Shown piece after piece: positions 29,163 through 57,978 of a DNA stretch of 64,000 bases. The position numbers and the translations under genes were made by a program. The notes under the pieces were generated by a model. That model saw only the letters and a list, made by a program, of their open reading frames with translations. It made no database searches and was not told the origin of the DNA. Source of the stretch: Clostridia bacterium (lineage in GTDB: Bacteria > Bacillota > Clostridia > Oscillospirales > CAG-382). The stretch spans positions 5,619 to 69,618 of the forward strand of contig JAFYUZ010000027.1 in the NCBI GenBank assembly GCA_017549365.1. The letters are read 5' to 3'. Within the stretch, counting starts at the first letter, position 1; every line of letters begins with the position of its first letter.

Positions 29163-32100
29163 TTATTCTTCGTCGAAGCCGAGGTCGGATTCGGGATCGA
29201 AATCCTCATCGAAGTCCTCGTCGAAATCCTCGTCAAGCTCGTCCTCTGCGTCGTTTTCGGCATCATCGAAATTAAGGAAATCTTCAATGCCCGAAACTTC
29301 TGTGTTTGTGGCATTGCCGTCCTCATCGATGGTGGGAGCGACTCTCTTGACCTTTTCGGTCTCTTCTGCCGAGCTGTCCTTGATCTTGACTTCGTTTCCG
29401 TCTGCGTCAAGCACCTTTACGTCGAGCGCAAGAGACTTGAGCTCGCGGATAAGCACCTTGAACGATTCGGGAACGCCGGGAGTGGGGATATTGTGACCCT
29501 TGACGATGGCTTCGTATGCCTTTACACGGCCGATGACATCGTCGGACTTGACGGTAAGAATTTCCTGGAGGGTGTAGGCTGCGCCATAGGCTTCGAGAGC
29601 CCAAACTTCCATTTCTCCAAATCTCTGTCCGCCGAACTGTGCCTTACCGCCGAGCGGCTGCTGGGTAACCAGTGAATAAGGACCTGTGGAACGGGCGTGG
29701 ATCTTATCGTCAACGAGGTGGTGAAGCTTGAGGTAATACATGATACCAACGGTTACGGGGTTGTCAAACTGTTCGCCTGTGCGTCCGTCGTAAAGAACAG
29801 TCTTTCCGTCGGGGCGCATGCCCGCTTCCTTCATAAATTCGGCAATGCCCTTTTCGTCAGCACCGTCGAATACGGGGGTCATGATCTTGCATCCGAGCTT
29901 TCTTGCTGCGATACCGAGGTGTACCTCGAGCACCTGACCGATGTTCATTCGGGAAGGAACGCCCAGAGGATTAAGCACGATATCAAGAGGAGTACCGTCG
30001 GGGAGGAAAGGCATGTCTTCGGAGGGCAGGATGCGCGAAACGACACCCTTGTTACCGTGACGGCCGGCCATCTTGTCACCGACAGAGATCTTTCTCTTCT
30101 GTGCAATGTAAACTCTTACTACCTTGTTTACTCCGGGAGGAAGCTCGTCGGAGTTGTCACGCGAGAAGGTGCGGACGTCAACAACGATACCGCTTTCGCC
30201 GTGAGGCAGACGGAGAGATGTGTCGCGTACTTCGCGTGCTTTTTCGCCAAAGATGGCGCGCAGAAGTCTTTCTTCGGGGGTAAGCTCTGTTTCACCCTTG
30301 GGTGTAACCTTACCGACGAGGATATCGCCTGCGTGAACTTCGGCACCGCGGCAAATGATACCGTCGGCGGTAAGATTTTTGAGCGCATCATCGCCAACGT
30401 TGGGGATGTCGCGGGTGATCTCTTCGGGGCCGAGCTTTGTATCTCTTGCTTCGTGGGAATATTCTTCGATATGGATGGATGTGTAGATATCTTCTCTTAC
30501 AAGGCGCTCGTTAAGAAGAACGGCGTCCTCGTAGTTGTAACCTTCCCATGTCATAAAGCCGATAAGAGCGTTCTTACCAAGGGCGATTTCGCCGTTGGAG
30601 GTTGCGGGACCGTCGGCAATAACCTGTCCCTTTTCAACACGCTCGCCTGCCATAACGATGGGGCGCATATTTACACAAGTGCCCTGGTTAGAGCGCTTGA
30701 ACTTGATAAGGTGATATTCTCTCTGGTTTCCGTCATCCTCAAGAATACGGATGGTATCGGAATCAGCCTTGAGAATGGTTCCTGCTTCCTTTGCGACGGA
30801 TACGACACCCGAGTCAACGGCTGCCTTGTATTCCATACCTGTGGCAACAATGGGGCTGTCGGTCATCATAAGAGGCACTGCCTGCTTCTGCATGTTCGAA
30901 CCCATGAGCGCACGGGAGTTGTCGTCGTTTTCAAGGAAGGGAATGTGAGCTGTTGCAACAGATACAACCATCTTAGGCGAAACGTCCATGTAGTCTATGC
31001 GGTTTGCATCAACTTCAAGGATCTCTTCGCGGTATCTTGCCGTAACACGCTCTTTTGCAAACTTGCCCTCTTCGGTAAGAGCTTCGTTTGCCTGAGCAAC
31101 GATGTATTCGTCCTCCATGTCGGCTGTCATATAAACAACTTCGTCTGTTACAACACCCGTTTCCTTGTCAACCTTGCGGTAGGGCGCTTCGATGAAGCCG
31201 AAGTCGTTGATCTTTGCATAGGTCGAGAGGTAGGAGATAAGACCGATGTTAGGACCTTCGGGAGTCTCGATAGGACACATTCTGCCGTAATGGGTATAGT
31301 GAACGTCACGGACTTCGAAGGATGCACGGTCACGCGAAAGACCGCCGGGGCCGAGAGCCGAAAGACGGCGCTTGTGTGTAAGCTCTGCAAGGGGGTTCGA
31401 CTGGTCCATAAACTGCGAAAGAGGCGACGAGCCGAAGAACTCCTTTATAGAGGATACGATGGGTCTGATGTTGATAAGGTTCTGAGGAGTGAGATTTTCC
31501 GAATCCTGGATGGTCATGCGCTCCTTAACGATCTTGTCCATGCGGGCAAAGCCGATGCGGAGCTGGTTCTGAAGAAGCTCTCCGACCGAGCGCAGACGAC
31601 GATTGCCGAGATGGTCGATATCGTCGGTTGTACCACACATGTGTGTAAGGCTGAGCAGATAGTTGATGGATGCGAAAATGTCCTCGCGGGTGATGTGCTT
31701 TGCAATAAGCTCATCGCGGCGCATAAGGAACTGCTCCTTGAACTCTGCGGCGTTCGAAACGCCGTCAAGGATCTCCGAAAGAACTTCTGTGTTGACTCTT
31801 TCGGTGATGTTGAGATCTTTGTAATATTCTTCGGGAACAACGCCAAGCTTATCGATGAAAGCGGTCTTGTTGCCGAACACCTTGAATTCAACTCTGGGAG
31901 TTGCGGGTGTGATGGCGTTGGAAAGAAGATAAACTTCGTTGACACCTGCGTTTTCGATCTCTTCTGCCATGGCGCGGTTAAGAACTGTGCCTGCCTCGAA
32001 AAGGATCTCGCCCGTAAAGGTGTTTACGACGTCGCGGGCAAGCTCAAAGCCTGCAATACGGCGGGCAAGAGCAAGCTTCTTGTTAAACTTGTATCTTCCG

Positions 32101-32993
32101 ACAGCAGAAATATCGTAACGCTTGGAATCAAAGAAGAGATTATTGATAAGAATAAGGGCGCTGTCAACGATGGCAGGATCGCCGGGACGAAGCTTGCGGT
32201 AGATCTCCTTAAGAGCTTCGTGGTGAGCGCTCGATTCGTTCTTCATGGCGTCGGATTCGCTGGAATCCTTTTCGAAGGTAGCACGAAGCTTTTCGTTGTC
32301 GCCGAAGAATTCGATAATCTGATCGTTGGTGGAAAGTCTCTCGTCAAGGGCTCTGATAAGCACAGTGATGGGAAGCTTGCGGTTTTTGTCAATTCTTACG
32401 TAGAAAACATCGTTGGCGTCGGTTTCATATTCGAGCCATGCGCCGCGATAAGGGATAACCGTTGCGGTAAAGATTCTCTTATCCGACTTGTCCATGGTGG
32501 AATCGTAATAGATACCGGGCGAACGGACGAGCTGGGAAACGATAACACGCTCCGCACCGTTGATGACAAAAGTACCTGTTTCGGTCATCAGCGGAAAATC
32601 ACCCATGAAAACCTCTGCATCCTTGATTTCGCCGGTCTGTTTGTTGGAAAGTCTGACCTTGACCTTCAGGGGAGCGGCAAAGTTTACGTCTCTCTCTTTG
32701 CACTCTTCAACAGAATACTTGGGCTTGTACTCCAGCGAGTAGTCGATGAAATCGATGTTGAGGTTTCCGGAATAATCGACGAGCGGGGACACGTCGTCAA
32801 GAACCTCGCGCAGACCTTTATCAAGGAACCACTGATATGATTTTTTCTGCACCTCGATAAAATTGGGCATTTCACAGAGATCTTCGTTGATTTTGGAAAA
32901 GCTGTATCTCAGATTCTTACCGAGATATTTGCGCTTAACTATACCGCTGTCAACGAGCTTCTGAAGCTTTGAAGGTTCAACCATATTAAGCAA
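29163..32993 (-). CDS. rpoB: DNA-directed RNA polymerase subunit beta (1276 aa, with an acidic C-terminal tail)
   Basis: '[10 protein letters not shown]', '[16 protein letters not shown]', '[13 protein letters not shown]', 'MNIGQVLE'. Confidence 0.97.
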
Positions 32994-33085
32994 TCACTCC
33001 ATTCATTTTTCCGGTCATTATGTGGAATTTCGATGTCTGAGGGGTCAAAAACGCAGACAACTACTCAATTATAATGCAGTATAAT

Positions 33086-33114
33086 AATATAGCATTGTTT
33101 TCTCGATTTGTCAA
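33086..33114 (-). promoter_or_regulatory. Sigma-A promoter, TTGACA-17nt-TATATT, upstream of rpoB
   Basis: Reverse complement of 33109-33114 is TTGACA. Reverse complement of 33086-33091 is TATATT. This leaves a leader of roughly 90 nt to the rpoB ATG. Confidence 0.6.
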
Positions 33115-33267
33115 GGGATTTTTTGGAATTTTTGATTTTATTTACATTTTGTTCACCAAATTCGTTTGAGAACGCATAAAACGCCCAAAAACGGGCAAAA
33201 TCAAAGCATCGGCTGCCAAAAAGAAAAAAAGCGGGTCTTTCGACCCGCGATCCATCGTTTTTTTCAT

Positions 33268-33615
33268 TTATACATTAAATACCTTTAAAGATTTGCCGTA
33301 CTCAAGGCATTTTTTTGCCGTGTCGGCAGATCCCCTCGGATGATCTCCGTGGACAAACGCCAAAACGTGGTCGGCATACTTCACGATCTCTGTGTTTCGC
33401 AAAAGAGTGGCGTTTCTGCCGTATTTTTCGTATTGGGGATAAAATATTTTTATCGGAATCCCGTGCTCGTCCGCATACCGCTCGGCAAGTTTGTCCACTC
33501 CCTCGGCGCCGCCGCTGACTATCTCGGTGCAGTTGATCGGAACTTTGCCGCATATCAGATTGTAAACCGCCTCGGGATCGGGAATATCGCGGGAGCCGAT
33601 GATGGCCACTTTCAA
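33268..33615 (-). CDS. DUF2493 / SLOG-fold (DprA-LOG-like) small protein
   Basis: 'IIGSRD......V.......I.......EIVSGGAEGVD.LAE.YA' is the pattern of this family as I recall it. Confidence 0.6.
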   Translation of the reverse strand: MKVAIIGSRDIPDPEAVYNLICGKVPINCTEIVSGGAEGVDKLAERYADEHGIPIKIFYPQYEKYGRNATLLRNTEIVKYADHVLAFVHGDHPRGSADTAKKCLEYGKSLKVFNV

Positions 33616-33727
33616 AAAATCACCCCATTTTTTATATTTTTTTCATTACATATTGTACGCCGCAAAACAAATATTATATATTGCCGCAAAAAGCTCTTTG
33701 CGCTTTTGCGGTTATGTGTGAAGTGCG

Positions 33728-34960
33728 ATGAAAAAAGGAATGGTCATTAAAATGCAGAAAAAATCTAAAGAAAAAAAGCTTCGTCCGAAATTTTCCGACA
33801 AAAACAGACTAATATATTTTATACCCTTTTTGCTGTTTTTGTCAATACTTGTTTTGGGCGCCGCCGAAAAAGCAATACCCGGAGAAATATACGCCGCCCC
33901 GTCTTCGTCGGTTGCGGTATCGCATCAGGCGACGGGGGTAAGCGCGTCGATTTCGCCCGAAAACGAATACACCGCAAAGCTTTTTGGATTTATCCCCGCA
34001 AAAAACGTTGAAAGCAATATCCCCGGGGATCTTTCGCTTGTGCCCTGCGGCGACGTTTTCGGAGTGAAATTTTTTACAAAAGGCGTTGTGATAACCGACA
34101 TTTCTGAGGTCGAGACCGAAAGGGGCATAATCAGCCCGGCCGGCAAAGCGGGACTGAAAAAAGGCGACGTGATACTTTCTCTTGACGGCAAAGAGGTAAA
34201 CACCTCGGAGGATACCACAAAGGCAATCTCCTCGTCGGGCGGCAAAGAGATAGTTGCGGAATTTGTCCGCGACGGAAAAAACTATAAGGCAAAACTTTTG
34301 CCTGTAAAGGCAAGCGCGGACAACAACTACAAGGCAGGCATGTGGGTGCGGGACAGCACGGCAGGTATCGGCACCATAACTTACTATGATCCCGACGACG
34401 GAAGCTTTGCGGGGCTCGGTCACGGAATATACGACGGCGAGACCCAGCTGCTTCTGCCCCTTTTGCGCGGAGCCGTGGTGGATATATCCCTTAATGATAT
34501 TATAAAAGGAAGAGACGGACATCCCGGCGAGCTCAAGGGCGAATTTGGAGAAGAAAAGGTCGGCTCTCTTTTCGGAAACACCGCCTGCGGAGTGTACGGA
34601 ACTCTTGCAAAAGAGCCGAAAACCATAAGCCAAAAGCTTCCCTGCGCCTTAAAGGGCGAGTTGCAGAAAGGCAAAGCTACGATTCTGTCGAACGTGGACG
34701 GACTTGGCGTAAAAGAATATGACATCGAGATCGTCAAGATATATTCGGGAAACGAAGAGACAAAAAACTTCGTCATCGAGGTAACCGACGACGAGCTTCT
34801 TGAAAAGACCGGAGGCATCGTCCGCGGAATGTCAGGTAGTCCGATTATTCAGGATGGAAAATTAGTTGGTGCAGTTACTCACGTTATGGTAAACGATCCG
34901 ACGAGGGGATATGGAATTTTTATAGAAAACATGCTAGCGGAGGCTGAGAAGGTTAAATAA
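33728..34960 (+). CDS. spoIVB: SpoIVB peptidase (S55) with PDZ domain
   Basis: 'GIGTITYYDP..GSFAGLGHGI', '[20 protein letters not shown]', and a PDZ segment. Which of the three N-terminal ATGs is the start is uncertain. Confidence 0.88.
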   Translation: MKKGMVIKMQKKSKEKKLRPKFSDKNRLIYFIPFLLFLSILVLGAAEKAIPGEIYAAPSSSVAVSHQATGVSASISPENEYTAKLFGFIPAKNVESNIPGDLSLVPCGDVFGVKFFTKGVVITDISEVETERGIISPAGKAGLKKGDVILSLDGKEVNTSEDTTKAISSSGGKEIVAEFVRDGKNYKAKLLPVKASADNNYKAGMWVRDSTAGIGTITYYDPDDGSFAGLGHGIYDGETQLLLPLLRGAVVDISLNDIIKGRDGHPGELKGEFGEEKVGSLFGNTACGVYGTLAKEPKTISQKLPCALKGELQKGKATILSNVDGLGVKEYDIEIVKIYSGNEETKNFVIEVTDDELLEKTGGIVRGMSGSPIIQDGKLVGAVTHVMVNDPTRGYGIFIENMLAEAEKVK

Positions 34961-34998
34961 GAAAAATGCTCGTCTATTTAATATAGGCGAGCATTTTT
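34854..34998 (+). repeat. Direct repeat copy 1: functional spoIVB 3' end plus terminator
   Basis: 34854-34908 is identical over 55 nt to 38969-39023. The following ~90 nt, including the stop codon and terminator hairpin, align with copy 2 at roughly three-quarters identity by eye. Confidence 0.9.
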
Positions 34999-35048
34999 AA
35001 TTTTTATTCACAAAGTGACGATATAAGTAATTTTTCATCATAAAACCC

Positions 35049-35077
35049 TTGAAAAAATATGAAAAAGGCGTTACAAT
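35049..35077 (+). promoter_or_regulatory. Sigma-A promoter, TTGAAA-17nt-TACAAT, inside the islet
   Basis: TTGAAA at 35049-35054 and TACAAT at 35072-35077. Confidence 0.55.
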
Positions 35078-35180
35078 AAAGTTACATTATAAATATTCGG
35101 GACGAACATTCCATACTTTTCGGATATGGTTCGGTAATACATATGCGCAAGCCTCAAAACAACATTAAGGAGTGATTTGA

Positions 35181-36140
35181 ATGAAGGCATTTTATCGTTA
35201 TCTCAGTTTTACAGCAATGCTGATACTGCTGCTTGTGTCTGTGGTTCCGTGTCTTGCGGTGGATGATGCCGTTGTCACGATCGACTCGGTTGAATTTGAA
35301 GAATACTCAGACATATTCGGTGAACGTGATAAACACACGGTCATAACCAGAATAAAATACACCGTTCCCGAAAAGACCAGAAGCGTGTCTCTTTTGCTTC
35401 TCGGCAAAGACATATCGGACACGGATGGTTTTGAACAAAGCATCATCTACATAGATCAGATCGACGAGCCTTGCGGCGAATACGAATTTTTGATAGAGCG
35501 CTCAAGAATAGAAAATGCCCTCGGGACTTCAGATATCGAAGGCAAAACTTTATATCTCAAAATGGGTGCATCGGGCAGCTCCACTCCCGATGTAAAAGCA
35601 GTTGAATACAATACACCCACCTGCATGACCTTTGAAGGCGCACAGATAAAAATGAACGGTGAGCAGGGACTAAGATTTGTTTTCTCTATTCCGAAATCGG
35701 TTTATGAAACTCTTGAGCAGCCCCAGTCTCCATCGGATACGGATCTTGGTTTCGGAAGCGTTGTATTGCCAAAGAAATATCTTGGTGACGAAAAGCTCGT
35801 AAAAGATTTTGTCACCGTCATTGACGGAAAAACAAAGAAGGCAAAAACGGCACCTGCCGTAAATCTTTTCAAGATTACCGACAAGTATGTATACTTCACG
35901 GTATGTGTGCTGCAGATAGACGAAACACACTATGCCGAAGAGTACACCGCGGTACCCTATATCACCTACAAAAAAGACGGTGAAAGTGTGACCGAATACG
36001 GTATGCAATCTCAAAATGTAAGTGTTTTTACGGTTGCTGAGCTTTGCTACGACGACTCAAGAACAACCGCCGAAGAAAAAAACTATCTGTATGACAGGAT
36101 CTTGTCTGTCATGGATCCCGAAAAGTACCCGGCAAAATAA
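35181..36140 (+). CDS. Secreted protein, unknown function
   Basis: AAGGAG RBS and signal peptide 'LILLLVSVVPCLA'. I recognise no family. Confidence 0.6.
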   Translation: MKAFYRYLSFTAMLILLLVSVVPCLAVDDAVVTIDSVEFEEYSDIFGERDKHTVITRIKYTVPEKTRSVSLLLLGKDISDTDGFEQSIIYIDQIDEPCGEYEFLIERSRIENALGTSDIEGKTLYLKMGASGSSTPDVKAVEYNTPTCMTFEGAQIKMNGEQGLRFVFSIPKSVYETLEQPQSPSDTDLGFGSVVLPKKYLGDEKLVKDFVTVIDGKTKKAKTAPAVNLFKITDKYVYFTVCVLQIDETHYAEEYTAVPYITYKKDGESVTEYGMQSQNVSVFTVAELCYDDSRTTAEEKNYLYDRILSVMDPEKYPAK

Positions 36141-36205
36141 AAACATATTTAATTTGACAAAAATGACAAACAGATAAATGTAAACCCTGAAAGGAGGGTA
36201 CCAAT

Positions 36206-38980
36206 ATGAAAAGAATAATCGGAATATTGCTTTGTTTTGTTATCATGTTAAATTTATTTCCTGCTGTGTATGCATCCACCGAAAATGTAGACTACAAGGT
36301 AATCTATATTTCATCGTGGAGAGATTTTTACGAAGCTTTCCGGGATAACGTATGGTGGAATGATAACCCTGATACGCATTACATAATGAAGCTTAATAAG
36401 GATCTTCATATGGATTTGACCACTTCAACAGATTTTTATGAGGTTGAGAGTCGTTCAGTACAGATGTGCGGTTATGTTACGTTTGATTTCAACGGTCATG
36501 TTCTTTCGTGTACGGATATCAATCCCGAAGACAAAAATAAAAACGGAAATTTTATTTCAATCGAGATGAGCCGTATCAACAACGAAGTAGGATCGGTATT
36601 ACGAATAACCGACTCTGTTGGAGGCGGTGGAATATTTATGGATGCTTACCGCCATTCTGATACTCAGATAGCTGCTCTTTTGGTGAGAGAATCTTCTGTC
36701 AACAGAAATACTGTTCCATACATTCTTTGCCCTGAACCGATTTGCAAGCTTATCATTGATGATGGACTTTTTCAGTTGAACTCACGGATTGTAACCCTGA
36801 ACAGCAACGGAACAAACAACATTGTCACCAATTATCGTGGTGCCGTAATAGCTGACAGCGTGGGACACGTTGAGATTAACGGCGGCATTTTTGCTGCAAG
36901 GTCTCTTGGTACAGATGCAGGAGCTGAGCTTGGTGATGAATTGGGAATGAAAGGGCTTAATCAGCGTGAACTCAGTGCATTTGGAACATGTTGTACCGAG
37001 TGCGTCGCACAGTTGCAGTCCCGTCCTACCGACCTTGTGATAAACGGCGGTGTTTTTGCCTCCGACGGTTATGCAATACACCATTTCCACGGTCTTTATA
37101 CAGATATATATACCCATAATGGCCTTAGCGGTCAGGAAATTGACAAGCTCACTTTCCCGAAAATTAACGGTGGAATTTTCGACGGTGCAATCGGATATAT
37201 AGGAAGAAGCGGTATTGCTGTTTCCGGTTTAAGCGGCACATTTGGAGATCCATTCTCTGAGCTTTTGGAAAGACCGTTTTCAAGCCTTATTTCTCCTTTT
37301 GCTTTAGTTGATATGAAAATTGTCGATTCTGATCAAACAAAGCAACTGAATCTGTCTAAATGTACTCTTGAGGATGTAAATACCAGCCATCTGAGATTGA
37401 CGGTTGTAAGTACTTCGCTCCTTTCTACCGAATTTTACCCGACGCCCGATCCCGAATCCGAGGTTACGCAACTGGTTCGTGATACATCTATGACCGAAAC
37501 ATTTGAGGTGATATACAGTATTCCCGATTATATGGAAGGGGAATTTGAAGTAAGAACAAACGTAACCCGCCGCGAAGACGGAACCAACCGGATAATTGAA
37601 GACGGTATTGTTAATTATGCAGATTATCCCAACGGAGTTACAATAGATGTGAATATTTCCGTAATCCGCGGTGCACACGTAAGCACATTTAACAAGACTT
37701 ATGAGGTAACCGTGCTTCCGGAGCCCCAGGCGGCTGTTATTACTACTCAGCCGAAATCAACTACGGTAAAACCCGGTGAATATGCAAAGCTTTCCGTTAC
37801 AGCCGACCATGCTGCGGCATATCAATGGTATGTTGTTGCGGCAGGACAAAAAATTCCTCTTACCCAACAGTTTATATCTATGTTGTTTGACGAAGGACAG
37901 ATACATGGCGAAACAACTCCTTGCTTGACGGTGACGGCAGACGGTGTATCAAATGCACAGTTTTACTGTGAGATCACAGGTACTGACGGTTCAAAGACAA
38001 ATTCGAAATATGCCACAACAACATTTGGCGATCTGCCGCAGGTTTTGTCCTTTAGCGGCGGAGAATTTGAAGCGGGCGGAGATGCAACCTTTACCCTGTG
38101 GGCAGATTATGCGGAAAATGTTGACTGGATCGTGCAGGTAAAGCAGGGCAGTAATACCGATTTCTATAATCTCAAAGAATATGCCGAAGAAACCGGTTGT
38201 GAATATGTTCAGTCACATAAAATAATGCCCTCAGGCATTTACAAAACAACCGTTACATTCAAGGATGTACCCGAGTCGGCAGCAAGAAGTATGTCTGTGG
38301 GATATGAGATGAAAAATGCGCTTGGTAAGGTTTCGTTCAATTCCAAAAACACCGTTGCTTTTACACTCAAGGTAATAAAGCCCGAAATCACACAGAATCT
38401 TGAATCGCAGGAATGTATTGACGGCGAAGATCTGACCTTTACATTTAAAGCAAAAAATATGACAGATGTTGAGTGGAGATTTGAAAAGCTCGATGAGGAC
38501 GGCACAGCCGTTGCATATGACCAAGACGAAATGCAGAATATCTTTTCGGAATCGGCATTTGGTACAAGATTTGAAACCGACAGCGAAACCGGCGAAAGTA
38601 CAGCAACTCTTGTCATAAACAACGCGAGATACGAGATGCGTGATTATAGCATTTACGTTTATGCACACAATTCAACCGGCTCATATCTGGCAGGATTCAC
38701 GCATTTCAACGTAACCGAGGTTGAAGACTTTGATATCTCAGACTGCAGCAACGATTTTGGGGTTATCACAGTGTGCTGCCCCGAGGCGGGAAACTACATT
38801 GTTTATATTGCAGGCTATGATGAATACGGAAGACTTGAAAAAGTCAATACCGTTCCCTTGTTTTTGAATAGAGGAAAAGCAGATTACTATACCTTTGAGG
38901 AGTTTGCCGATCACGCAAAAATAAAAGTTATGCTTTGGGATGAAAATATGAGCCCCCTCTGCGAAGCTATGGAAAATTAG
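36206..38980 (+). CDS. Large secreted protein: putative beta-helix region plus Ig-like domains
   Basis: AGGAGG RBS and a signal peptide. The motif 'INGG[IV]F' recurs three times and 'GGGIF' once. An Ig-like module '[19 protein letters not shown]...YQWYVV...[15 protein letters not shown]' resembles the repeats in ORF 2-1438. The TAG stop lies inside repeat copy 2. Confidence 0.65.
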
Positions 38981-39112
38981 TTGGTGCAGTTACTCACGTT
39001 ATGGTAAACGATCCGACGAGGGGTTATGGAATATTCGTTGAAAATATGCTGTCGGAAGCAGAGAAATTTAGATAAGAGAAACGCTCGTCTATTGATTTAG
39101 ACGAGCGTTTTT
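38969..39112 (+). pseudogene. Direct repeat copy 2: orphan spoIVB 3' fragment ('[34 protein letters not shown]') plus terminator
   Basis: Same reading frame content as the spoIVB C-terminus, but with no upstream gene body. The terminator hairpin is acgctcgtct/agacgagcgt, followed by a T-run. Confidence 0.85.
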
Positions 39113-39124
39113 GATGGACAAGCA

Positions 39125-39880
39125 TCATATTGGTTTTCTTGAGAATCTGAATTTGTCAGGAGAAATTTTATAAAATCGTTTAAACGCCCTGCTAAACTGA
39201 TAAATGTCGGAATATCCCACCATAAGAGCAACTTCCCCCACGGGAAACATCTCGAGCAGCAAAGTTTTCGCCTGATTCATGCGTATTCTTGTAATATATT
39301 GAAAAGGAGTCATTCCAAACTCTTTTCTGAAAAGTTTGTGAATATACGATTTGCTTATATTACAGCTTTCAGCCAGGAAATCAAGAGTCAGGTCACTTTT
39401 GTTATAAAATTTTTCAATTGTTTCAAGCGCGGGGGACAACAACGAGTTGCTGTCTCCGGGCTCATACGGGAAACATTCCCCGAGCAGTTGATATATTTTT
39501 TCAAATATTCTGGATCTTTTTCTTGCCGTAGGATTTGCATTCAGAACTATTATTTCGTTAAAACATTTTTGCAAATGCTCTCTGTCGGGCGGTAAAAGCC
39601 AAAAAATCTTTTCTTTGTTGCTTTTTGCTTTGATGTTTATCATTATGCTTTGTGCATTTTCCATGCACGAGTTTAAGTAACTCATGCCCTCCTGAATAAA
39701 AACGGGGTGGTCGGCATCGGCAATCACCTTCCCCGTTTCCCACGAAAATTCGATTTTCCCGTGTATAGGAAAAATCAAAGCAGAGCTTTCTCGTTTGTTA
39801 ATATAAAAACTTATTCCCTGATGGTTTATCGGCTTACTTATCGATAAAAACTCGGTAATAACAAAAGCTTCTTCGTCCAT
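39125..39880 (-). CDS. AraC-family transcriptional regulator (cupin-like N-terminal domain plus HTH)
   Basis: C-terminal 'FLAESCNISKSYIHKLFRKEFGMTPFQYI...VGYSDIYQFSRAFKRFY.ISP'. GGAGGTG precedes the ATG at 39880. Confidence 0.85.
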   Translation of the reverse strand: MDEEAFVITEFLSISKPINHQGISFYINKRESSALIFPIHGKIEFSWETGKVIADADHPVFIQEGMSYLNSCMENAQSIMINIKAKSNKEKIFWLLPPDREHLQKCFNEIIVLNANPTARKRSRIFEKIYQLLGECFPYEPGDSNSLLSPALETIEKFYNKSDLTLDFLAESCNISKSYIHKLFRKEFGMTPFQYITRIRMNQAKTLLLEMFPVGEVALMVGYSDIYQFSRAFKRFYKISPDKFRFSRKPI

Positions 39881-40030
39881 AAATTCACCTCCACCATTTA
39901 TATTGTATATAAAACACACGGTTTTGTCAAACGCTTTGTACATTTTCGGCTAAATTAAATGTATTTTCAGTCATTTAAACAATGGTTTTTAAGTGGTATA
40001 CTGTGTTTATAAAACAAGGAGGTTGATACT

Positions 40031-40744
40031 ATGGATTTTACAGGTAAAACAGCTTTTGTAACAGGTGCCGCCAAGGGTATCGGAAGAGCGACAGCCATAG
40101 GCTTTGCAAAAAACGGGGCAAATGTTGTTGTTTCGGACATTTCGGATCTTTCCGAAACCTGCGGAGAGATAAATAAATATACAGAAAACTTTATGGCAAT
40201 AAATTTTGACGTATCTGATGAGGCCGCCGCACGAAACGCGATTGCAAAGGCGGCTGAAAAATTCGGAAAAACAGATATTCTTATAAACAACGCAGCAATA
40301 TTCCCTATTTCCGATTTTGCAAACTCTTCTTCGGAGCAATGGAAAAAAGTAATTGACGTTAATGTTTTGGGCACCATGTATTTGTCGCATGCGGTTTTGC
40401 CGTCCATGATCGAAAACGGCTATGGCAGAATTGTAAACATCGGCTCGGTTGCGGGTGTTTACGGTCTCAGCTGGTTTGTTGATTATTCCATGTCAAAGGG
40501 TGCGGTTATATCCTTTACAAAGGCGCTTGCAAAAGCTGTGTCCGACAAAGGTATCACCGTAAATTGCGTTTCGCCCGGAAGCGTAGCTCCCGACGGAAGC
40601 GACGCCATGAAAGATTTTTCGTTTGTGGGCCGCGCCGCTACCTATGATGAAATTGCAAATGTGATTTTGTTTGTGGCAAGCAACGAAGCAAGCTATGTTT
40701 CGGGCCAGAATTACCTTGTCGACGGTTGCCGAAAACAAATGTAA
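40031..40744 (+). CDS. SDR-family oxidoreductase (FabG-like)
   Basis: 'TGAAKGIGRA', 'NNAA', and Y-x3-K in 'YSMSKGAV'. Confidence 0.85.
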   Translation: MDFTGKTAFVTGAAKGIGRATAIGFAKNGANVVVSDISDLSETCGEINKYTENFMAINFDVSDEAAARNAIAKAAEKFGKTDILINNAAIFPISDFANSSSEQWKKVIDVNVLGTMYLSHAVLPSMIENGYGRIVNIGSVAGVYGLSWFVDYSMSKGAVISFTKALAKAVSDKGITVNCVSPGSVAPDGSDAMKDFSFVGRAATYDEIANVILFVASNEASYVSGQNYLVDGCRKQM

Positions 40745-40938
40745 GCATATTTTTTGTTGTCCCGCGCCGATTTTCCTTGTGTCAGGGCAACCCGCCTGAA
40801 AATTTTGCCAACAGAGATTTGATGCAAAGCCTTGCAATTTGAAAAAATGGAAAAAATCCATCAAAACATAGAATTTTTATATTTACTATTTGCCGTAATA
40901 TGATATAATAAGTATATCAAAACATTCGGAGGCAGTTT

Positions 40939-41817
40939 ATGAAAGAAAGCATGATCGGAATGCTGCTGATATTTGCAGGACTTGTTTGCCATCAGTTTGA
41001 AGCGATACTTGTAAAACAGCACGGCAAAAAGCACGGCTCGGGCGGCATGCACTTTAACGCCATCATTTGTCTTTTTGCCATGGTATATTTTTTTGTAACA
41101 GACAAAAACGGTTTGCAGTTTTCGCGCGAGGTAATTCTTTACGGCGTTGCCAACTGTTTTATGTATGCCACGGGTTTTTACACCACCTATCTCGCCTTTC
41201 GGTCGGGATCCTTCGGGCTCACCCGTCTTTTCACAGCCTTCAGCGGCATAATCCCCATTTTTTACGGCATAATCTTTCTTAAAGAGCCGACATATCCCAT
41301 AACCTACGTCGCCCTTGTACTTATCTTCGTTTCTGTTTTTCTGATGAACTACACAAAGGGCGAAAAAGACGGCAACAAGCTCACGATCGGTTGGCTGATC
41401 TGCACGCTTTTAACTGTTCTTTCAAACGCGATCATTTCAATAATAGGAAAAGTCGAACACGATCACCTGGGCGACGGTTTCAATAACGAATTTCTGATAA
41501 TCTCGCTCGGCGGCGCGGCAATTATTCTGTTTATCCTCGGATTTATCTTCGAGCGCAAAGATTTCAGATCGACCTTCAGATACGGCCTTGTCTACGGAAT
41601 GTTTGCAGGAATTTTCAACGGAATAAACAATCTTCTCGTCCTTACCACCTACAACTACCTGCCCCTTTCGTTCATCTCGCCCGTGAAAACCGGACTTGGC
41701 ATCGTCATCAGCTTTTTTGTGTCACTGTTGTTTTTCCGCGAAAAATTTTCGCGGCGGCAGATCGCAAGCGTTGCCATCGGCATAGTTGCCGTGGTGCTTA
41801 TAAATATTAAAATATAA
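40939..41817 (+). CDS. DMT/EamA-like 10-TM transporter
   Basis: Two-fold repeated five-helix hydrophobic pattern. The family call is from topology and general resemblance only. Confidence 0.6.
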   Translation: MKESMIGMLLIFAGLVCHQFEAILVKQHGKKHGSGGMHFNAIICLFAMVYFFVTDKNGLQFSREVILYGVANCFMYATGFYTTYLAFRSGSFGLTRLFTAFSGIIPIFYGIIFLKEPTYPITYVALVLIFVSVFLMNYTKGEKDGNKLTIGWLICTLLTVLSNAIISIIGKVEHDHLGDGFNNEFLIISLGGAAIILFILGFIFERKDFRSTFRYGLVYGMFAGIFNGINNLLVLTTYNYLPLSFISPVKTGLGIVISFFVSLLFFREKFSRRQIASVAIGIVAVVLINIKI

Positions 41818-41852
41818 AAAATGCCCCTCGGGTTTTGACCGAGGGGCAAATT

Positions 41853-43541
41853 TTATACATTCTTCTTTATCGTTTCATATACTTCGTCTATAAATTCGGA
41901 AAAACTCTGTGCATCGCGCGGCGAAACGTCAAACGACGGAACGCCAAAATGCTTTTCGATAAGCGCATTGCACGCTTCTTTTCCCACAAGCTTTTTGAGC
42001 AGTTCAAGAAGCCTCATATCCACAAGTCCTTCGTTAAAGATCTTTTGTCTTACCGACTGATAGCATCCGCCGTTGAAGGCAGGATAAACAAAAAACGAGG
42101 TACCCGCCAACGAAAAACCGCCGCAGGGATTAAGGATGGGATCAAACAAATACTGGCTGAGCTCGCCGTAATAGTTGTTGTAGCCCCAGTGCAAAAATCC
42201 CTTTATGTCGTGATAAAAAAGCTGAACTCCCAGCATTCTGTTGCGCTCGCGGGGGATATGGAAAGTTCTGTTGCTCGATGCACCCATAGTTGCCGCAGAG
42301 CCGACATAATACGCCCAAAGATTTTTTACCTTTCCGAGAAAAGGCTTGATATCGGCGGTCATAACTATGGGGTTTCTGCAGATGCCCTTTTCGTATATTT
42401 CAAAATGTGAAAGAGCATCGCCCATCATATAATCCTTCAAAAGCTCCGCCACCGCGTTGAAAGCCACGGAATAATGGGGAATGTGCTCGTTTTGCGGTTC
42501 GTCGGAAACATGGAAAAGTATCTTTTTTTCAAGCTTTTCGGTTTTGAGGAATTTTTTAAGCTCTGTGATGTATTGGGTGAGAAAATCTGCATATTCCTGC
42601 GATCCCGAATCGGTTTCCCAGCCAAAGATCTTCTTTTTGCGTCCGTTCACGTATGCTTCGATCTTGGGCGCCGCCTTTGCACCCCACTGGGTGAAAAGGT
42701 GGGAATGCTCGAAATACTTTATGCCGTTTTTGCGGCAGACATCGACGAATTTTTTCATCAGGCTGAAATCAAAGGTGTATTTCTTGCCTTTTTTTGTTAT
42801 CTTGACAAGCTGAACCGTCATTCTTTCTCGGCCGGGAGATGTATCAAGAGGCGGAGTGAAAGCAGGCATAAGTATCATGTTCATGCCGTTTTTCGTAGCG
42901 GTCTTTACGTAGGTTTCAAATATTTCAAAATACTTGTCGGTAAAAACCTCCACGTTGTAAACGTCGGCAAGGCAATCGTTGTGGAACCAGTTGGTGTACA
43001 TAAGCTTTTGCGCACCGAGCTTTACGGGAAGAACTTCTATTTGTGCCTCGGCGTCACCACAGGGATTTCCGTTTCTGTCGAAAAGCTCAAATTTCAGCTT
43101 GTGAACACCTGCGCAAACAGTCTTTGCATCCTCGTTTACCGTAAACCAAACCGCCTGCCAGCTGTCGTCATAAGCGCGAAGGCGCACTTTTTCGCCCTGC
43201 TCGGTGACAAGGTCATTTCCGAAATACTGATGCACAAGAAGGGGGGGATTTGTCTTTTTGGGCACAAGAATATCGGGATAAAGTCCGGTTTGCATTCCCG
43301 TATCGATGGTGGACGTGTGAAGAAGCGGAACGTTGTTTATATAGTAGATGCTGATGGGAAGATCTGATGTGGTCTTTATGTGAAAATCGCAGTTTTTTGC
43401 ACTTCCGTCGGTCATCTTAAAAGCCATCTGGAAAGAAACAGGCTGGTTTTCACACATAAAAAAGGAATTTTTCACCTTTCCCACAGGCTCTCTGTCGGTA
43501 TAAACAGGCACGAGGGAATCGTATATTCTTGTTTCGATCAT
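41853..43541 (-). CDS. DUF4091 domain-containing putative glycoside hydrolase
   Basis: 562 aa from the ATG at 43541, which follows an AAAGGAA RBS. The C-terminal 'GFLHWGYNNY' region is typical of DUF4091 as I recall it. Confidence 0.55.
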   Translation of the reverse strand: MIETRIYDSLVPVYTDREPVGKVKNSFFMCENQPVSFQMAFKMTDGSAKNCDFHIKTTSDLPISIYYINNVPLLHTSTIDTGMQTGLYPDILVPKKTNPPLLVHQYFGNDLVTEQGEKVRLRAYDDSWQAVWFTVNEDAKTVCAGVHKLKFELFDRNGNPCGDAEAQIEVLPVKLGAQKLMYTNWFHNDCLADVYNVEVFTDKYFEIFETYVKTATKNGMNMILMPAFTPPLDTSPGRERMTVQLVKITKKGKKYTFDFSLMKKFVDVCRKNGIKYFEHSHLFTQWGAKAAPKIEAYVNGRKKKIFGWETDSGSQEYADFLTQYITELKKFLKTEKLEKKILFHVSDEPQNEHIPHYSVAFNAVAELLKDYMMGDALSHFEIYEKGICRNPIVMTADIKPFLGKVKNLWAYYVGSAATMGASSNRTFHIPRERNRMLGVQLFYHDIKGFLHWGYNNYYGELSQYLFDPILNPCGGFSLAGTSFFVYPAFNGGCYQSVRQKIFNEGLVDMRLLELLKKLVGKEACNALIEKHFGVPSFDVSPRDAQSFSEFIDEVYETIKKNV

Positions 43542-43670
43542 AAAAATGTTCCTTTCGTATTTTGTACTGACTATAATGTACCATATTTTGACTGCAAACA
43601 CAATGGTATTTCTTGCTGAAAATTGTTCTTTTTCTGCTATATTAAAACGCCAAAAATTTTTGCACCGCGC

Positions 43671-43697
43671 AAAAAACCCGCCGTACGGCGGGTTTTC
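43671..43697 (-). terminator. Intrinsic terminator after the esterase gene
   Basis: Stem cccgccg/cggcggg with a T-run on the minus strand. Confidence 0.75.
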
Positions 43698-43705
43698 TTA
43701 TTTCA

Positions 43706-44461
43706 TCAAAGTGCTTCAAATGTGGTTCTGATTGCAGAATCCTGGGTGGATCGTTCGGAAAAGACCTTGTTTTTGTCCTCGAGCTTTTCAAACTCTTCGT
43801 AGTAACGAAGACCGAATTCATAAAGAGCGTCGGCACAAAAATGCAGATTGTCGGGATTGGGTTTCAAACCTTTTGCACTGACAAAACCTGTCATTTCGTG
43901 CTCTTTTGCATAGCGTTCGAGCGCAGGATTTACAACTTTGAACCCTTCGGCAAGCCCGCCGTTTGCGTAGATCTCAATAAAATCTCCCAGCCCTCCGACA
44001 AGAAAGGGTACATCATAAAGGTCAAGATCTCGGCGCAAAGCCGAAAAGATCTTTTCAAGCTTTTCGTAATATACGGGATATCTGCCATCGTGGCAATCAC
44101 TTTCGCCCTGATGCCACAAAACACCTGCAATCGTGGAGGTGCGGGATGCAAGGCGCGCACAGTTTACCGCATTGTCATAAAGAAGGCTTCCCTCCTGCCA
44201 TTGGTCAAGGCAGGTGCCGCCATCGGCGCAGGGGATGAGTCCCACCATAACGTTTTCGTGCTTTTCCGAATATTTTTCGGCAAAGCTTTCGGCAAGATTT
44301 ACTCCCGAAAAAGATCTGTCTCCGTTGACGGGACGGTAAAAGGGTTGCCATCTGCCGTTGCGTAAAACGCGGATGTTCTGTCCGTTTATTTCGTGGGCTT
44401 CATCAAAAAAACCTCTGCCTGCCATATTCGATTGGCCGATGAGCAAAAACGAATGTATCAT
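43706..44461 (-). CDS. Sialate O-acetylesterase-like (SASA/DUF303, SGNH-type) carbohydrate esterase
   Basis: N-terminal 'LLIGQSNMAGRG', 'VLWHQGESD'. Confidence 0.75.
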   Translation of the reverse strand: MIHSFLLIGQSNMAGRGFFDEAHEINGQNIRVLRNGRWQPFYRPVNGDRSFSGVNLAESFAEKYSEKHENVMVGLIPCADGGTCLDQWQEGSLLYDNAVNCARLASRTSTIAGVLWHQGESDCHDGRYPVYYEKLEKIFSALRRDLDLYDVPFLVGGLGDFIEIYANGGLAEGFKVVNPALERYAKEHEMTGFVSAKGLKPNPDNLHFCADALYEFGLRYYEEFEKLEDKNKVFSERSTQDSAIRTTFEAL

Positions 44462-44471
44462 AAAATTTCTC

Positions 44472-44822
44472 CTATTCCCTGCAAACTGTCAGTTTTATCA
44501 AAAGCTCTTCGCTGTCATACTGATCGTCGGAAAGATTATCCTTTGCCGAAAGTTTCAAGGCGGCTTTGTTGCGGCGGATATCACCGCATTTTTTGCATTT
44601 ATGAGTTATAACGTAACCCTTTTTGGGGTCGGGCTCGCAAAAGATCGGCACAAGAAGTCCCAGACATTCGGACGCTCTGTCGCCGGGGTTTATATCAATA
44701 TGTATTGAACAAAGGCACCTCGGACAATGGTTTCTGCTGGTCTTGCCCAAAGGCTGAACCTTGAAACCGCAATTCTTGCAAACAAAGCCTGCGTCGTTTT
44801 TTGTAAAACGCTTTATCTCCAT
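44472..44822 (-). CDS. RNHCP domain-containing zinc-ribbon protein
   Basis: Literal 'RNHCPRCLCS' motif plus 'CKNCG' and 'CKKCG'. The start is taken as the ATG at 44822, just after the uxuA stop. Confidence 0.7.
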   Translation of the reverse strand: MEIKRFTKNDAGFVCKNCGFKVQPLGKTSRNHCPRCLCSIHIDINPGDRASECLGLLVPIFCEPDPKKGYVITHKCKKCGDIRRNKAALKLSAKDNLSDDQYDSEELLIKLTVCRE

Positions 44823-44827
44823 GCGGC

Positions 44828-45877
44828 TTATTTCTTGCTGTCCTTTTCGATGGCTTCCCAAAGTCCGTTGATGTAAGCGGCGCCCATGGCTCTGTCGTAA
44901 AGACCGTAGCCGGGTCTGCCGGTTTCGCCCCAGATCATTCTGCCGTGGTCGGGACGGATATAGCCGTCAAAGCCTGTTTCCACAAGAGCTTTTACGATGC
45001 CGTAGATATCAAGCGAACCATATTCGGTCTTGTGCGCGGTCTCGTCAAAGTCGCGCTCGCCGGTGAACTTGATGTTTCTGATGTGCATAAAGGGGATTCT
45101 GTCCATGGCAGAATATTTTCTGACCATAGAAGGAATGTCGTTTTTGGGATCAACGCCGAGAGAACCTGTGCAGAAAGTAAGGCCGTTGTAGGGCGAATCG
45201 ACAAGCTTTAAGAAGCGGTCGAGGTTTTCTTCGCAGGTGATAACTCTGGGAAGACCAAAAATGCCCCATGGCGGATCGTCCGGGTGGATCGCCATTTTGA
45301 CGTCGCACTCCTCACAGGTGGGAATAATGCCCTTAAGGAAATATTCCATGTTTTCCCAAAGCTTTTCTTCGTCGACGCTCTTGTATTCTTCAAGAAGTGC
45401 GCCAAGGCCTTCTTTTGTATAGCTGGAATCCCATCCGGGAAGCGAAAGGTCGCCCTTTCTGGGGTCCATTCCAAGCACGGTTTCATCGCGGTAAACAAGC
45501 GATGTGGAACCGTCGGCGTTAACGTGGGAAAGGTCGGATCTCAACCAGTCGAAAACGGGCATAAAGTTATAGCAGATAACCTTTACACCTGCCTTTGAAA
45601 GGTTGCGGATGTTCTGGCAATAAACTTCGATGTACTTGTCGCGGGTGGGCTTTCCGAGCTTGATATCCTCGTGCACGGGAACGCTTTCTACGATATCGAA
45701 GATAAGGCCGTGGTCCTCGCACGCCTTTTTGATCTTAAGAATCTCCTCCATCGGCCAGATCTCGCCAACGGGAACAGAATAAACTGCCGAAACGACGCTG
45801 CGCATGGCAGGGATCTGCGATATGTACTCAAGACTTACAGGGTCCTGCTCGCCATACCAGCGGAATGACATTTTCAT
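44828..45877 (-). CDS. uxuA: Mannonate dehydratase
   Basis: '[19 protein letters not shown]' N-terminus and overall UxuA length. Confidence 0.85.
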
Positions 45878-45903: not shown

Positions 45904-46905
45904 TTATTTGTTACCTGAAAGGTTTTGTTTTCTTGTGTTCAGACGGATATCCTCGCCCACAAATCCAAACGAACGGTAAGAGCCGATAACGCGCGACACG
46001 ATGCGTTCGTCATACGCCTTGCGCATGGCGTCAATGCTCGAAAGGTTGGTGCTGATGACAGTTCCTTTGTCGGCGCAAAGGCGGGTGTTGAGAATGTTGT
46101 AAAGGGTGGCGTGGGTAAACGAATTTGCAAACTCCGAGCCGAGATCGTCGATGATAAGAAGATCGCATTCAAAATATTTGTCGGTGGTAACCGGTACGTC
46201 GATCTTTGAAAAACGCTCTCTTTCAAAAGTGTGCATAATATTCAGCGCCGTGTCGTAGACCACGTAAAAACCGCGATCGATCAGCTTTTTTGCCACCGCC
46301 GTCGAAAGGTGAGTCTTTCCGAGTCCTGTGCCGCCGTAGAACATGATATTCTTGCCACAGTCCTCTTTTCCGAAATCCTCGGCATATTTTTTGGTCTGTG
46401 AAAGAATAAATTCCATCATCTTGCGGGATTTTTCGGGATAGAGCGAAGTATCAAAATTTTCAAAGCTCTGGTCGGTCAGCATTGCGCCAAGTCCCGAATT
46501 GAGATACGATTCGCGGCGCAAAGCCTTTATAAGACATTCGCAGGGGTCAATGCCCACGTAGCCTGTGTCGTTGCATTTTTTACATTCATATCTGGGCTTT
46601 GTGTAATCGGCAGAATATCCCGCTTCTTTCAATATATCCGCACGGGCAGACTGAAGTTCGCGGTTTTCCTCGTGCAAAGCCTCTATTCTGTCCTCAAGGG
46701 GCACGGGGTTGCCTTTTTTCAGCGCCTCGGCATAAACCTTAAGTCCCGTTTTTGCCAACGCATCGTCTATTTCCGCAATTCCCGGAACGCGAAGATGAAC
46801 TTCGTTTCTTCGTTCCTGGGCTTCTTCTATGGCTTTTTTCTGTTTTTCGTCAAAAAATTCTTTAACTTTCTTTCTGACGTCGATCGAATAAGAAATGACA
46901 GACAC
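45904..46905 (-). CDS. DnaC/DnaI-like (IstB-type) AAA+ helicase-loader-like ATPase
   Basis: Zinc knuckle 'CKKCNDTGY...CEC', Walker A '[10 protein letters not shown]', Walker B 'LLIIDDLG'. The start is uncertain. A TTGACA-18-TATAAT promoter lies inside the longest ORF (TTG at 46941), so the real start should be the GTG at 46905 or the ATT at 46896, after AAAGAGG. Confidence 0.75.
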
Positions 46906-46924
46906 CTCTTTCTGAGTAATTAGA

Positions 46925-46954
46925 ATTATACCCTCAAACAAAGCCTCTTGTCAA
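46925..46954 (-). promoter_or_regulatory. Sigma-A promoter, TTGACA-18nt-TATAAT
   Basis: Reverse complement of 46949-46954 is TTGACA. Reverse complement of 46925-46930 is TATAAT. Confidence 0.6.
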
Positions 46955-57639: not shown

Positions 57640-57978
57640 CAGAAGTTTTCTCCTTTCATAATAAAGGGCGGCTTTATGGGCTTGCTTTTTGTATTCCCGC
57701 GGAAGGCATCCGAACTCGGCAAGAAAAGCCTTGTTGAAACCGCCGAGACTGTCATATCCGTAACGCATTGCCGTATCTGTTATCTTTTTTCCGGACAAAA
57801 TATCAAGAGAAGCCGCCTGCAATCGGTAGTGGCGAACATATTTTGCAAAGGGTCGCCCGGTGTATTCATGAAATTTCGAGCAAAGATGCCATTTTGAATA
57901 GCCAAAATTGGCGGCAACATCACCAAGCTCAAGCTTTTTTTCAATGTTATCGTGAATATACTTCAAAACATCAAACAT
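57640..57978 (-). CDS. Stand-alone AraC-type dual-HTH domain (SoxS/MarA-sized) with no stop codon before the GRE start
   Basis: 'VAANFGYSKWHLCSKFHEYTGRPFAKYVRHYRL..A...L......I.D.AMRYGYDSLGGFNKAF..EFGC.PREY'. It runs in frame into the ATG at 57639. Confidence 0.7.

Follow-up and report, generated by a model that had tools for sequence, protein, structure and literature searches.

The window analyzed here is a 64-kb stretch of a Clostridia bacterium contig (JAFYUZ010000027.1, assembly GCA_017549365.1; Oscillospirales, CAG-382), in which spoIVB, a sporulation protease gene, has its 3′ end and terminator duplicated on both sides of a 4.1-kb unit with two cargo genes. The duplication probably marks one unit of a tandem stack of recombinase-less cassettes, which were integrated at the 3′ end of spoIVB by a serine recombinase. 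This reading is built on insertions that can be mapped to the exact base in related strains, on the spread of one cassette between distant hosts, and on a short conserved sequence at the right end of the cassettes (hereafter, the arm), which also adjoins serine recombinase genes on larger elements.

The search of the window for repeats returned a single family, with a length of 125 nt, an identity of 88% and a spacing of 4115 nt. The two copies are perfectly identical over 55 nt (table 1), and their homology extends through the SpoIVB C-terminus and the terminator hairpin up to ~34998 in copy 1 and ~39112 in copy 2, in agreement with a preliminary description of this sequence. Copy 1 completes a 410-aa open reading frame (ORF) which matches Peptidase_S55 of Pfam in full (E 1.4e-80), in addition to PDZ domains. 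The gene is thus intact and never split, in contrast to the sporulation genes that carry intervening elements. As a 402-aa product (start 33752), SpoIVB is present in five public contigs. Copy 2 has no gene body; it translates into 34 residues and matches the functional tail of a related strain (locus L167). Both hairpins are stable (−21.4 kcal/mol, z −7.2, in copy 1; −23.1 kcal/mol, z −6.5, in copy 2) and are followed by a T-run. The GC content drops from 0.51–0.52 in the spoIVB body to 0.36–0.46 between the copies. The AT-rich character attributed earlier to the insertion is therefore real, although it is not confined to it, as the low-GC zone runs on to ~43.7 kb, past the right end of the duplication. 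The same gene order was found in contigs of five independent assemblies (three complete and two ending inside the cargo), and thus the repeat is no assembly artefact, a possibility which had been named as an objection from the beginning.

The anatomy of the insertions is seen in three loci of related strains, which form a nested series. In L167, the spoIVB body is followed by a tail of type T2, the genes AraC272 and SDR (short-chain dehydrogenase), an arm joined to an orphan tail, and the genes for a 319-aa protein, a 923-aa protein, EamA and GH123. The body in L169 is followed by tail T3, AraC256-GH30-EamA295, an arm joined to a T2 orphan, AraC272-SDR, an arm with a scar, and EamA. In L171, the order is tail T4, AraC275-EamA307-glycosidase, an arm joined to a T3 orphan, AraC256-GH30-EamA295, and an arm joined to a T2 orphan at the contig end. 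According to blastn, L171 equals L169 with 3849 nt inserted between A and TG, and L169 equals the left part of L167 with 3354 nt inserted at the same A/TG position. In both insertions, the entire old tail is retained behind the arm and the entire new tail is placed after the body. The sequence on the left of the TG differs (gene body vs. arm), and the first codons on its right differ as well (AGCGGC vs. TCAGGT). The crossover shares only the TG; therefore, homologous recombination is excluded and the 2-bp crossover of a serine recombinase fits. Such a crossover at a fixed position, typical of large serine recombinases, is found for the canonical units of the relatives, whereas in the window unit the left side is compatible with it and the right junction is off position. 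These insertions agree with the earlier proposal that an inserted element had supplied a replacement 3′ end to spoIVB and left the old end as an orphan.

The TG belongs to the Met codon of the catalytic-serine motif GMSGSP and is located 23 nt upstream of the 55-nt identity. Most orphan tails start at one codon of this motif (xSGSPI), with the conserved arm immediately before them. The arm has a length of ~25 nt (GTTGTCCC..TTGACA.CACTCG), and the consensus drawn from 20 unique arm–tail junctions is AAAAAnTGTTGTCCCnTATTGACAnCACTCG, directly followed by TG. Within ±10 kb the arm is located only downstream of spoIVB, and it is therefore not a general repeat. The arm is not a hairpin of the attC type either, since the fold of 40745-40805 has a z of −0.28. 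The diversity on the right of the TG is considerable. Among the public proteins of the window species, at least six different C-termini follow the GM of SpoIVB sequences which are otherwise ~98–100% identical, and the DNA of the strains is identical up to ...CGCGGAATG and diverges from the next base.

Arms were also encountered in a second configuration. Tails of the form “...NAAxxPxAKAS*” are followed, 25–45 nt downstream, by a palindrome of 47–49 nt, formed by two arms in inverted orientation. Except in L055, L083, and L088, it reads as a near-consensus promoter, TTGAAC-17-TATAAT. In five loci (L041, L055, L057, L080, and L095) a third arm comes after the palindrome, and its reverse complement, GGCATCATCCAAGGGAGAG followed by TAGTGTGTTATAATAGGGACAAC, mimics the GIIQG codons of spoIVB. 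The Rfam scan of the window and of the arm-bearing loci gave no family matching the arm or the palindrome.

The T4 cassette of L171 provides the evidence for horizontal spread. Its glycosidase is found as an identical protein on ~24 contigs, and the entire 3.8-kb cassette (tail-AraC-EamA-glycosidase) is ~98% identical across L171, L173, L174, L175, L176, and L177. In the comparisons of L171 with L174 and with L177, the TG (L171 position 4249) is the exact left boundary of the shared block, which continues through the arm into the next tail. The context of the cassette varies: it is placed directly after spoIVB in L171 and L176, after a pyruvate-formate-lyase cassette in L174 and L177, and, in L173, after a cassette whose last gene encodes a fructose-bisphosphate aldolase. 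The host SpoIVB of L174 and L176 is just 47–49% identical to that of the window. Judged from these alignments, the T4 cassette is a discrete, horizontally mobile unit without a recombinase of its own, because it remains ~98% identical in hosts whose SpoIVB proteins are <50% identical.

Orphan tails are not restricted to the window species. In a first survey, i.e., a translated search of 80 species-representative loci and the window, 8 of the 81 sources showed extra SpoIVB tails downstream of an intact spoIVB, at distances of 0.3–6 kb from each other. Arrays occur in strains of the window species and, beyond it, in seven or more Oscillospirales genomes, with up to two orphan tails per locus; tandem repeats of the target-gene end are present in the window, L167, L169, L171, L173, and L174. 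The closest species-level relative (L001, Oscillospiraceae SIG695) has a SpoIVB 93% identical to that of the window and the same flanking genes (rpoC, rpoB, and a small SLOG/DprA-like gene). Its cargo is a different one, namely a GH32 hydrolase, and the orphan tail after it is written in the GC-rich codon style of the host. The cargo found in the survey often combines AraC regulators with sugar-use genes. It includes PfkB with 2-keto-3-deoxy-6-phosphogluconate (KDPG) aldolase and AraC; AraC beside an aminotransferase, a cyclodeaminase, a protein of the metallo-beta-lactamase fold and another with weak similarity to ceramidases; BNR with a lyase of the dihydrodipicolinate synthase (DHDPS) family and AraC; regulators with helix-turn-helix (HTH) and tetratricopeptide repeat (TPR) domains; two AAA_14/DUF4143 ATPases; and, in one case, only ~190 nt of noncoding DNA. 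Neither a recombinase in cis nor a conserved upstream neighbor was found in the array hosts, in which the upstream genes vary by host and none is a recombinase. The metagenome scan with SpoIVB gave a closest match of 54% identity and no orphan tails.

Two loci deserve separate mention. In L057, the two ATPase genes are paralogous (11486-12808 and 13120-14445, minus strand) with an arm between them, and each may be a small cassette of its own. L109, from one strain of a human-gut species, contains a 437-aa ORF (11746-13059, minus strand) similar to serine recombinases. It is situated where the homology to sister strains stops, which is the 3′ terminus of the gene (230 aa) lying downstream of spoIVB, and appears to be an integrative element of its own, directed at another target.

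The link to serine recombinases was provided by IMG/VR. The search of this database with the SpoIVB tail peptide returned nine loci, and in seven of them (L181–L187) the match begins at the orphan position with the same arm before it. Immediately upstream of this arm–tail junction, L181–L187 carry tandem genes of ~550, 568, and 530 aa. The Pfam scans covered eight of these genes, from L182, L186, and L183: all three genes of L182 and L186 contain the Resolvase and Recombinase domains, with Zn_ribbon_recom in five of the six, and both scanned genes of L183 are large serine recombinases, its third gene being recognized by tblastn alone. By tblastn the triplet extends across L181–L187 and is clear in six, with identities of ~50% between positional orthologues and of 27–33% between paralogues. 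The arm consensus is therefore common to cassette ends and to recombinase-bearing contigs. One of the latter, L184, and the array L174 come from the same source metagenome. The triplet-bearing elements may be plasmid-like or conjugative rather than phages, judging by the genes around them, which encode sigma-70-like regulators, a ParM-like actin and a protein with an HD domain. Two matches of the arm pattern in viral contigs were discarded as chance matches inside a phage structural gene.

Further recombinase genes were noted in L184 and L188. In L184, another large-serine-recombinase gene (6843-7871) lies ~140 nt past the orphan tail and its terminator, which suggests two recombinase-bearing elements in tandem. 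The viral contig L188 ends inside a SpoIVB tail (2-88) that diverges after ...THVLINE, and has distant members of the serine-recombinase genes nearby on the opposite strand (1995-5281); this may be another element family entering spoIVB at a different codon.

A canonical unit consists of a ~44-codon replacement SpoIVB tail from the catalytic-serine motif onward, a terminator, a self-contained cargo and the ~25-nt arm at the right end. It would enter by conservative site-specific recombination at the TG in the Met codon of GMSGSP, the incoming tail keeping spoIVB intact and the resident tail being displaced downstream as an orphan behind the arm. The terminator of the orphan probably also ends the transcription of the preceding cargo. 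Because the incoming tail resembles the resident one, a target-like junction between body and tail would be recreated and further stacking would be possible, with the newest unit always nearest to spoIVB. The junction of the arm with the old tail would in turn resemble the site of the element and possibly permit excision. The triplet elements may themselves integrate at spoIVB, in which case their attachment site would be the arm together with the start of their own tail. The enzyme would be a large serine recombinase, or the triplet, encoded by larger elements with the same arm–tail junction. The cassettes without recombinase would be either mobilized in trans, as with cis-mobilizable elements (CIMEs; PMC5704250) and the ccr-less units of the staphylococcal cassette chromosome (SCC; PMC7029136), or deletion derivatives. 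In this respect the phrase “decayed or trans-mobilised islet”, used in the preliminary description, named the right class.

The 4.1-kb unit of the window deviates from the canonical form and is not alone. Next to it is a second unit, AraC-SDR, with the arm proper at 40756-40786 and a scar after it which is common to L169; the single two-gene islet proposed at first is thus real, yet it is one of at least two stacked units. The order in the window is body, tail T1, the 319-aa and 924-aa genes, a T2 orphan cut at nt 26, AraC272-SDR, the arm with TGTCAGG and the scar, EamA, and GH123. In L167, a complete orphan tail and both cargo genes come after the AraC-SDR arm, and therefore the two units have reversed orders in the two strains; the difference concerns the order of the units and not only their presence. 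The empty site predicted earlier does exist in L167 and L168, where spoIVB has a hybrid tail (left part as in copy 1, right part as in copy 2) and the AraC gene directly after it. The absence of the cargo that was expected with it does not hold, as L167 keeps the same cargo 1.8 kb further downstream behind another orphan tail. At 5470-5510, L167 has an additional 38-nt hairpin (gtctgagcagacc...ggtctgc) after the tail terminator, which is not present at the respective position of the window (~34998).

The right junction of the 4.1-kb unit is equally atypical. The 924-aa gene is cut 8 nt ahead of its native stop (9 nt are lost counting the stop) and is joined to nt 26 of the orphan tail, whose first 25 nt are gone, and the conserved arm is absent. 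The last 12 nt of the gene, including the stop codon, are thus located in copy 2. The protein ends in PLCEAMEN*, whereas the L167 orthologue ends natively in PLCEAFE* and the more distant homologues in ..PLCxxYQ*. The junction did create this C-terminus, as had been noticed, although the effect is limited to two replaced residues and one residue gained. The unit seems to have been remodeled, and its right junction would be an illegitimate join between the end of the cargo gene and the tail. Copy 1 is a mosaic: over its left ~80 nt it is the same as the T2-type tail of L167, and further right its homology is to the tail that stands before the cargo in L167. The 55-nt identity probably goes back to gene conversion, or to homologous exchange, of one tail with the other. 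It is not the att core that it had been taken for, since in canonical events the exchange point is the TG upstream of it and the right end is the arm that this junction lacks. The window allele needs at least one illegitimate join together with homologous exchange or conversion between tails. Histories leading from the L167 order to that of the window were tried by loop-out and re-insertion, by tandem duplication and deletions, and by template switching; each needs at least one illegitimate join and a conversion, and none is clearly the best.

As regards the cargo itself, the 319-aa protein is 98% identical in L167, and many relatives of the 924-aa protein contain dockerin domains. The suggestion that read-through from spoIVB drives these genes is unlikely, because a strong terminator follows copy 1 and a promoter-like site precedes the cargo.

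Several points weigh against the integration of the window unit as one of a stack of serine-recombinase cassettes. No recombinase was found in the 4.1-kb interval, in the 64-kb window or in any array locus, as the preliminary description had anticipated for the interval, and the action in trans is unproven. The right junction of the window is without an arm, which the AraC-SDR unit has, and the 4.1-kb unit may never have moved site-specifically. The scan of viral contigs with the SpoIVB profile gave no attL side with a replacement tail, and no complete recombinase-bearing element with both ends in spoIVB was found. The canonical attL and attR of large serine recombinases are not substrates for integration, so that stacking would need the regenerated junction to act as attB. 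The full palindromes and third arms of some lineages are left unexplained. For these units, serine-recombinase stacking nevertheless appears probable to us. A broader proposition sees the 3′ end of spoIVB in gut Oscillospirales as a platform for gene capture that resembles an integron and is operated by serine recombinases. Every unit would rebuild the catalytic end of the protease and so regenerate the site, stacking would be unlimited, and small recombinase-less cassettes with regulated carbohydrate-use modules would be moved in trans between hosts with SpoIVB <50% identical; for this one we consider the case evenly balanced.

The armless junction and the perfect 55-nt repeat of the window would also be expected from RecA-dependent (Campbell-type) integration alone, in which a circular or ends-in fragment, bringing a piece of tail, the terminator and both cargo genes, entered by a crossover inside the 55-nt identity of the resident tail, without any site-specific recombinase. 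Mosaic tails are common (L035 copy 3, L082 vs. L083, and copy 1 of the window), which indicates that homologous exchange of tails does occur. This explanation is unlikely, though it has to be taken seriously: it does not account for the canonical events, in which complete old and new tails meet nonhomologous DNA at one dinucleotide, nor for the conserved arm, and an illegitimate join at the end of the cargo gene would still be needed to close the circle. It is more doubtful that the cassettes are products of the in situ decay of full elements, immobile now, and that the arrays grew by complete arrivals which lost their recombinases later. Decay to CIMEs followed by accretion is a documented route for tandem islands (PMC5704250), and the other recombinase gene just past the orphan tail of L184 would suit it. 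The recombinase-less 3.8-kb cassette, on the contrary, is ~98% identical at several positions within arrays and in two or more host backgrounds, with the same TG boundary, and its spread demands either movement after the loss of the recombinase or repeated identical decay.

Two further explanations have hardly any probability. For an assembly artefact or a simple local tandem duplication there is nothing to be said beyond the repeat itself, and against it are the five agreeing assemblies, the single copy of the cargo and the alternative, internally consistent arrangements of related strains. Programmed variation, with the orphans as a reservoir for switching the SpoIVB C-terminus in the manner of a diversity-generating retroelement or a shufflon, could be imagined from the several alternative tails per species with silent copies downstream, and is just as improbable. 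The orphans are in direct orientation, and exchange would delete the cargo; the differences between copies are of all kinds and not adenine-specific, and neither a reverse transcriptase nor an invertase was found. Moreover, orphans contain damaging changes (L to P in GKLVGA, V to A, an in-frame stop, and truncations), and the protein sequence of the tail is conserved instead of diversified. Integron attC sites, Xer/dif modules, IS200/IS605 or IS91 ends and Tn7-like ends were also considered and dropped, as were palindrome breakage with microhomology and an RNA-mediated copy, since they do not fit a fixed TG junction and a recombinase-linked arm.

When compared with known systems, the stacked spoIVB cassettes share with the composite SCC islands at rlmH/orfX (SCC, ccr-less pseudo-SCC, and the arginine catabolic mobile element, ACME) the insertion into the 3′ end of a conserved gene, for spoIVB probably likewise by large serine recombinases, and the tandem stacks bounded by gene-end repeats, some units of which have no recombinase genes (PMC7029136 and general knowledge). 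In contrast, the SCC repeat covers ~18 bp of the gene end and the spoIVB one is a ~130-nt replacement tail, including the catalytic serine, with a terminator. The spoIVB system also differs in its target gene, in its hosts, which are anaerobic spore-formers, in its cargo of regulated carbohydrate modules and in the triplet recombinases. CIMEs and the elements ICESt1 and ICESt3 (integrative and conjugative elements, ICEs) at the 3′ end of fda are similar in their integrase-less, att-bearing members, the tandem accretion and the dependence, presumed for spoIVB, on a related autonomous element (PMC5704250). Their integrases are of the tyrosine type, their att cores are long and identical, and newcomers insert at attR, whereas the spoIVB system has a dinucleotide crossover, entry next to the gene body and small cassettes of ~0.3–6 kb.

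Serine-integrase triplets have been described as an integration module in integrative elements of Firmicutes, with junction repeats of 2–8 bp (PMC4701971). The Streptococcus ICEs with such triplets resemble the larger elements in the three tandem recombinases, the positional orthology, the location at one element end and the very short junction repeats; they disrupt their target gene (mutT, traG or hsdM), whereas spoIVB elements restore theirs with their own tail (PMC4701971). Other serine-recombinase elements reside on sporulation genes, i.e., skin (sigK), SPbeta (spsM), and gin (gerE), the last of which has three recombinase genes (PMC5595907). These elements split the gene and excision in the mother cell restores it; spoIVB functions without excision, and its orphan 3′ ends build up. 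Integron arrays are alike in their ordered small recombinase-less cassettes, one proximal entry site, the newest cassette being nearest, and the presence of the same cassette in different positions and hosts. An IntI tyrosine recombinase next to the site and attC hairpins with R and L boxes are absent from the spoIVB system, which is accordingly not an integron; in addition, its cassettes have their own regulators and promoters, and the exchange point is inside a coding sequence that each cassette must rebuild. Finally, in the orphan C-terminal modules of rhs and cdiA a new 3′ end with linked genes also displaces the old end as a downstream orphan. Such modules serve to diversify the C-terminus, presumably by homologous exchange, whereas spoIVB tails are functionally equivalent and their junction is site-specific.

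On this comparison, SCC composite islands and the accretion of CIMEs are nearest in behavior, whereas the recombinase module is of the triplet-serine-integrase type and the outcome resembles an integron array. What sets the system apart is the target gene, the rebuilding of a 44-codon catalytic tail and terminator, the entry next to the gene body, and a cargo of often AraC-regulated carbohydrate genes. In full-text literature searches, spoIVB did not come up as a reported integration site or hotspot. If correct, the interpretation would add a cassette-stacking system for Gram-positive anaerobes, in which integron-like platforms are few, and spoIVB would be a new target gene for serine integrases, with the last ~44 codons including the catalytic serine replaced and the gene not split. 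The strain-level variation of sugar-use genes in gut and rumen Oscillospirales would be explained as the exchange of discrete, self-regulated modules, and so would the small “Peptidase_S55” fragments annotated downstream of spoIVB. The short site (arm, TG, tail) and the recombinase triplets could become integration tools for genetically difficult Clostridia.

Table 1. Positions of the features in the window, of the segments shared with L167, and of the regions containing the palindromes of inverted arms
Feature	Sequence	Position	Strand	Basis or remark
spoIVB coding sequence	Window	33728..34960	+	Pfam Peptidase_S55, PDZ_2, PDZ_6; likely start 33752 per public gene calls
Copy 1	Window	34829..34998	+	Functional SpoIVB tail 34829-34960, then terminator hairpin 34962-34998
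TG of the Met codon in GMSGSP, canonical exchange point	Window	34830..34831	+	Alignments, junction table; L171 and L169 insertions map here
55-nt block identical to 38969-39023	Window	34854..34908	+	Sequence comparison
Promoter-like site TTGAAA-17-TACAAT	Window	35049..35077	+	Consensus match only; upstream of cargo
Cargo gene 1, 319 aa, signal-peptide-like N-terminus	Window	35181..36140	+	ORF and Pfam; no Pfam family
Cargo gene 2, 924 aa, signal-peptide-like N-terminus, probably secreted	Window	36206..38980	+	ORF and Pfam; weak Ig_3 match
Noncanonical junction	Window	38968..38969	+	Compared with L167 9460-9501 and canonical junctions
Copy 2	Window	38969..39110	+	Orphan SpoIVB tail 38969-39075, T2 type, then bidirectional terminator hairpin 39079-39110
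AraC-family regulator of the next cassette	Window	39125..39943	-	Pfam HTH_18, HTH_AraC; directly after spoIVB in L167 and L168
Short-chain dehydrogenase (SDR), AraC cassette	Window	40031..40744	+	Pfam adh_short
Canonical right-end arm GTTGTCCCGCGCCGATTTTCCTTG, then TGTCAGG (first 7 nt of tail), then deletion scar	Window	40756..40809	+	
Shared segment	L167	1-3649		Window 31352-35001
Shared segment	L167	3503-5320		Window 38969-40786
Shared segment	L167	5314-9498		Window 34830-38974
Shared segment	L167	9545-13609		Window 40805-44868
Palindrome	L041	11069-11198		
Palindrome	L055	3223-3350		
Palindrome	L057	10967-11015 and 12942		
Palindrome	L064	11005-11053		
Palindrome	L080	10958-11200		
Palindrome	L083	1769-1815		
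Palindrome	L088	9009-9057		
Palindrome	L095	2682-2810		

Other features of the window were recorded in the course of the analysis. Divergent from spoIVB there is a 115-aa SLOG/YAcAr (DprA-like) gene (33268-33615, minus strand), which is kept in the window species and in L001 and not in the other array hosts, and is probably unrelated to the cassette system. A 345-aa protein (45904-46941, minus strand) has weak matches to IstB_IS21 and DnaA-type ATPases and no IstA-like neighbor; it is probably of the helicase-loader type and not an insertion sequence. The region 55366-57978 (minus strand) contains a pyruvate-formate-lyase-like gene in two ORFs, the upstream of which has an N-terminal AraC-type HTH, and could be either a frameshifted pseudogene or an unusual fusion. 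Lastly, 59901-59971 (minus strand) matches the Gut-1 RNA of Rfam with 54 bits (E 7e-8), above the gathering score.

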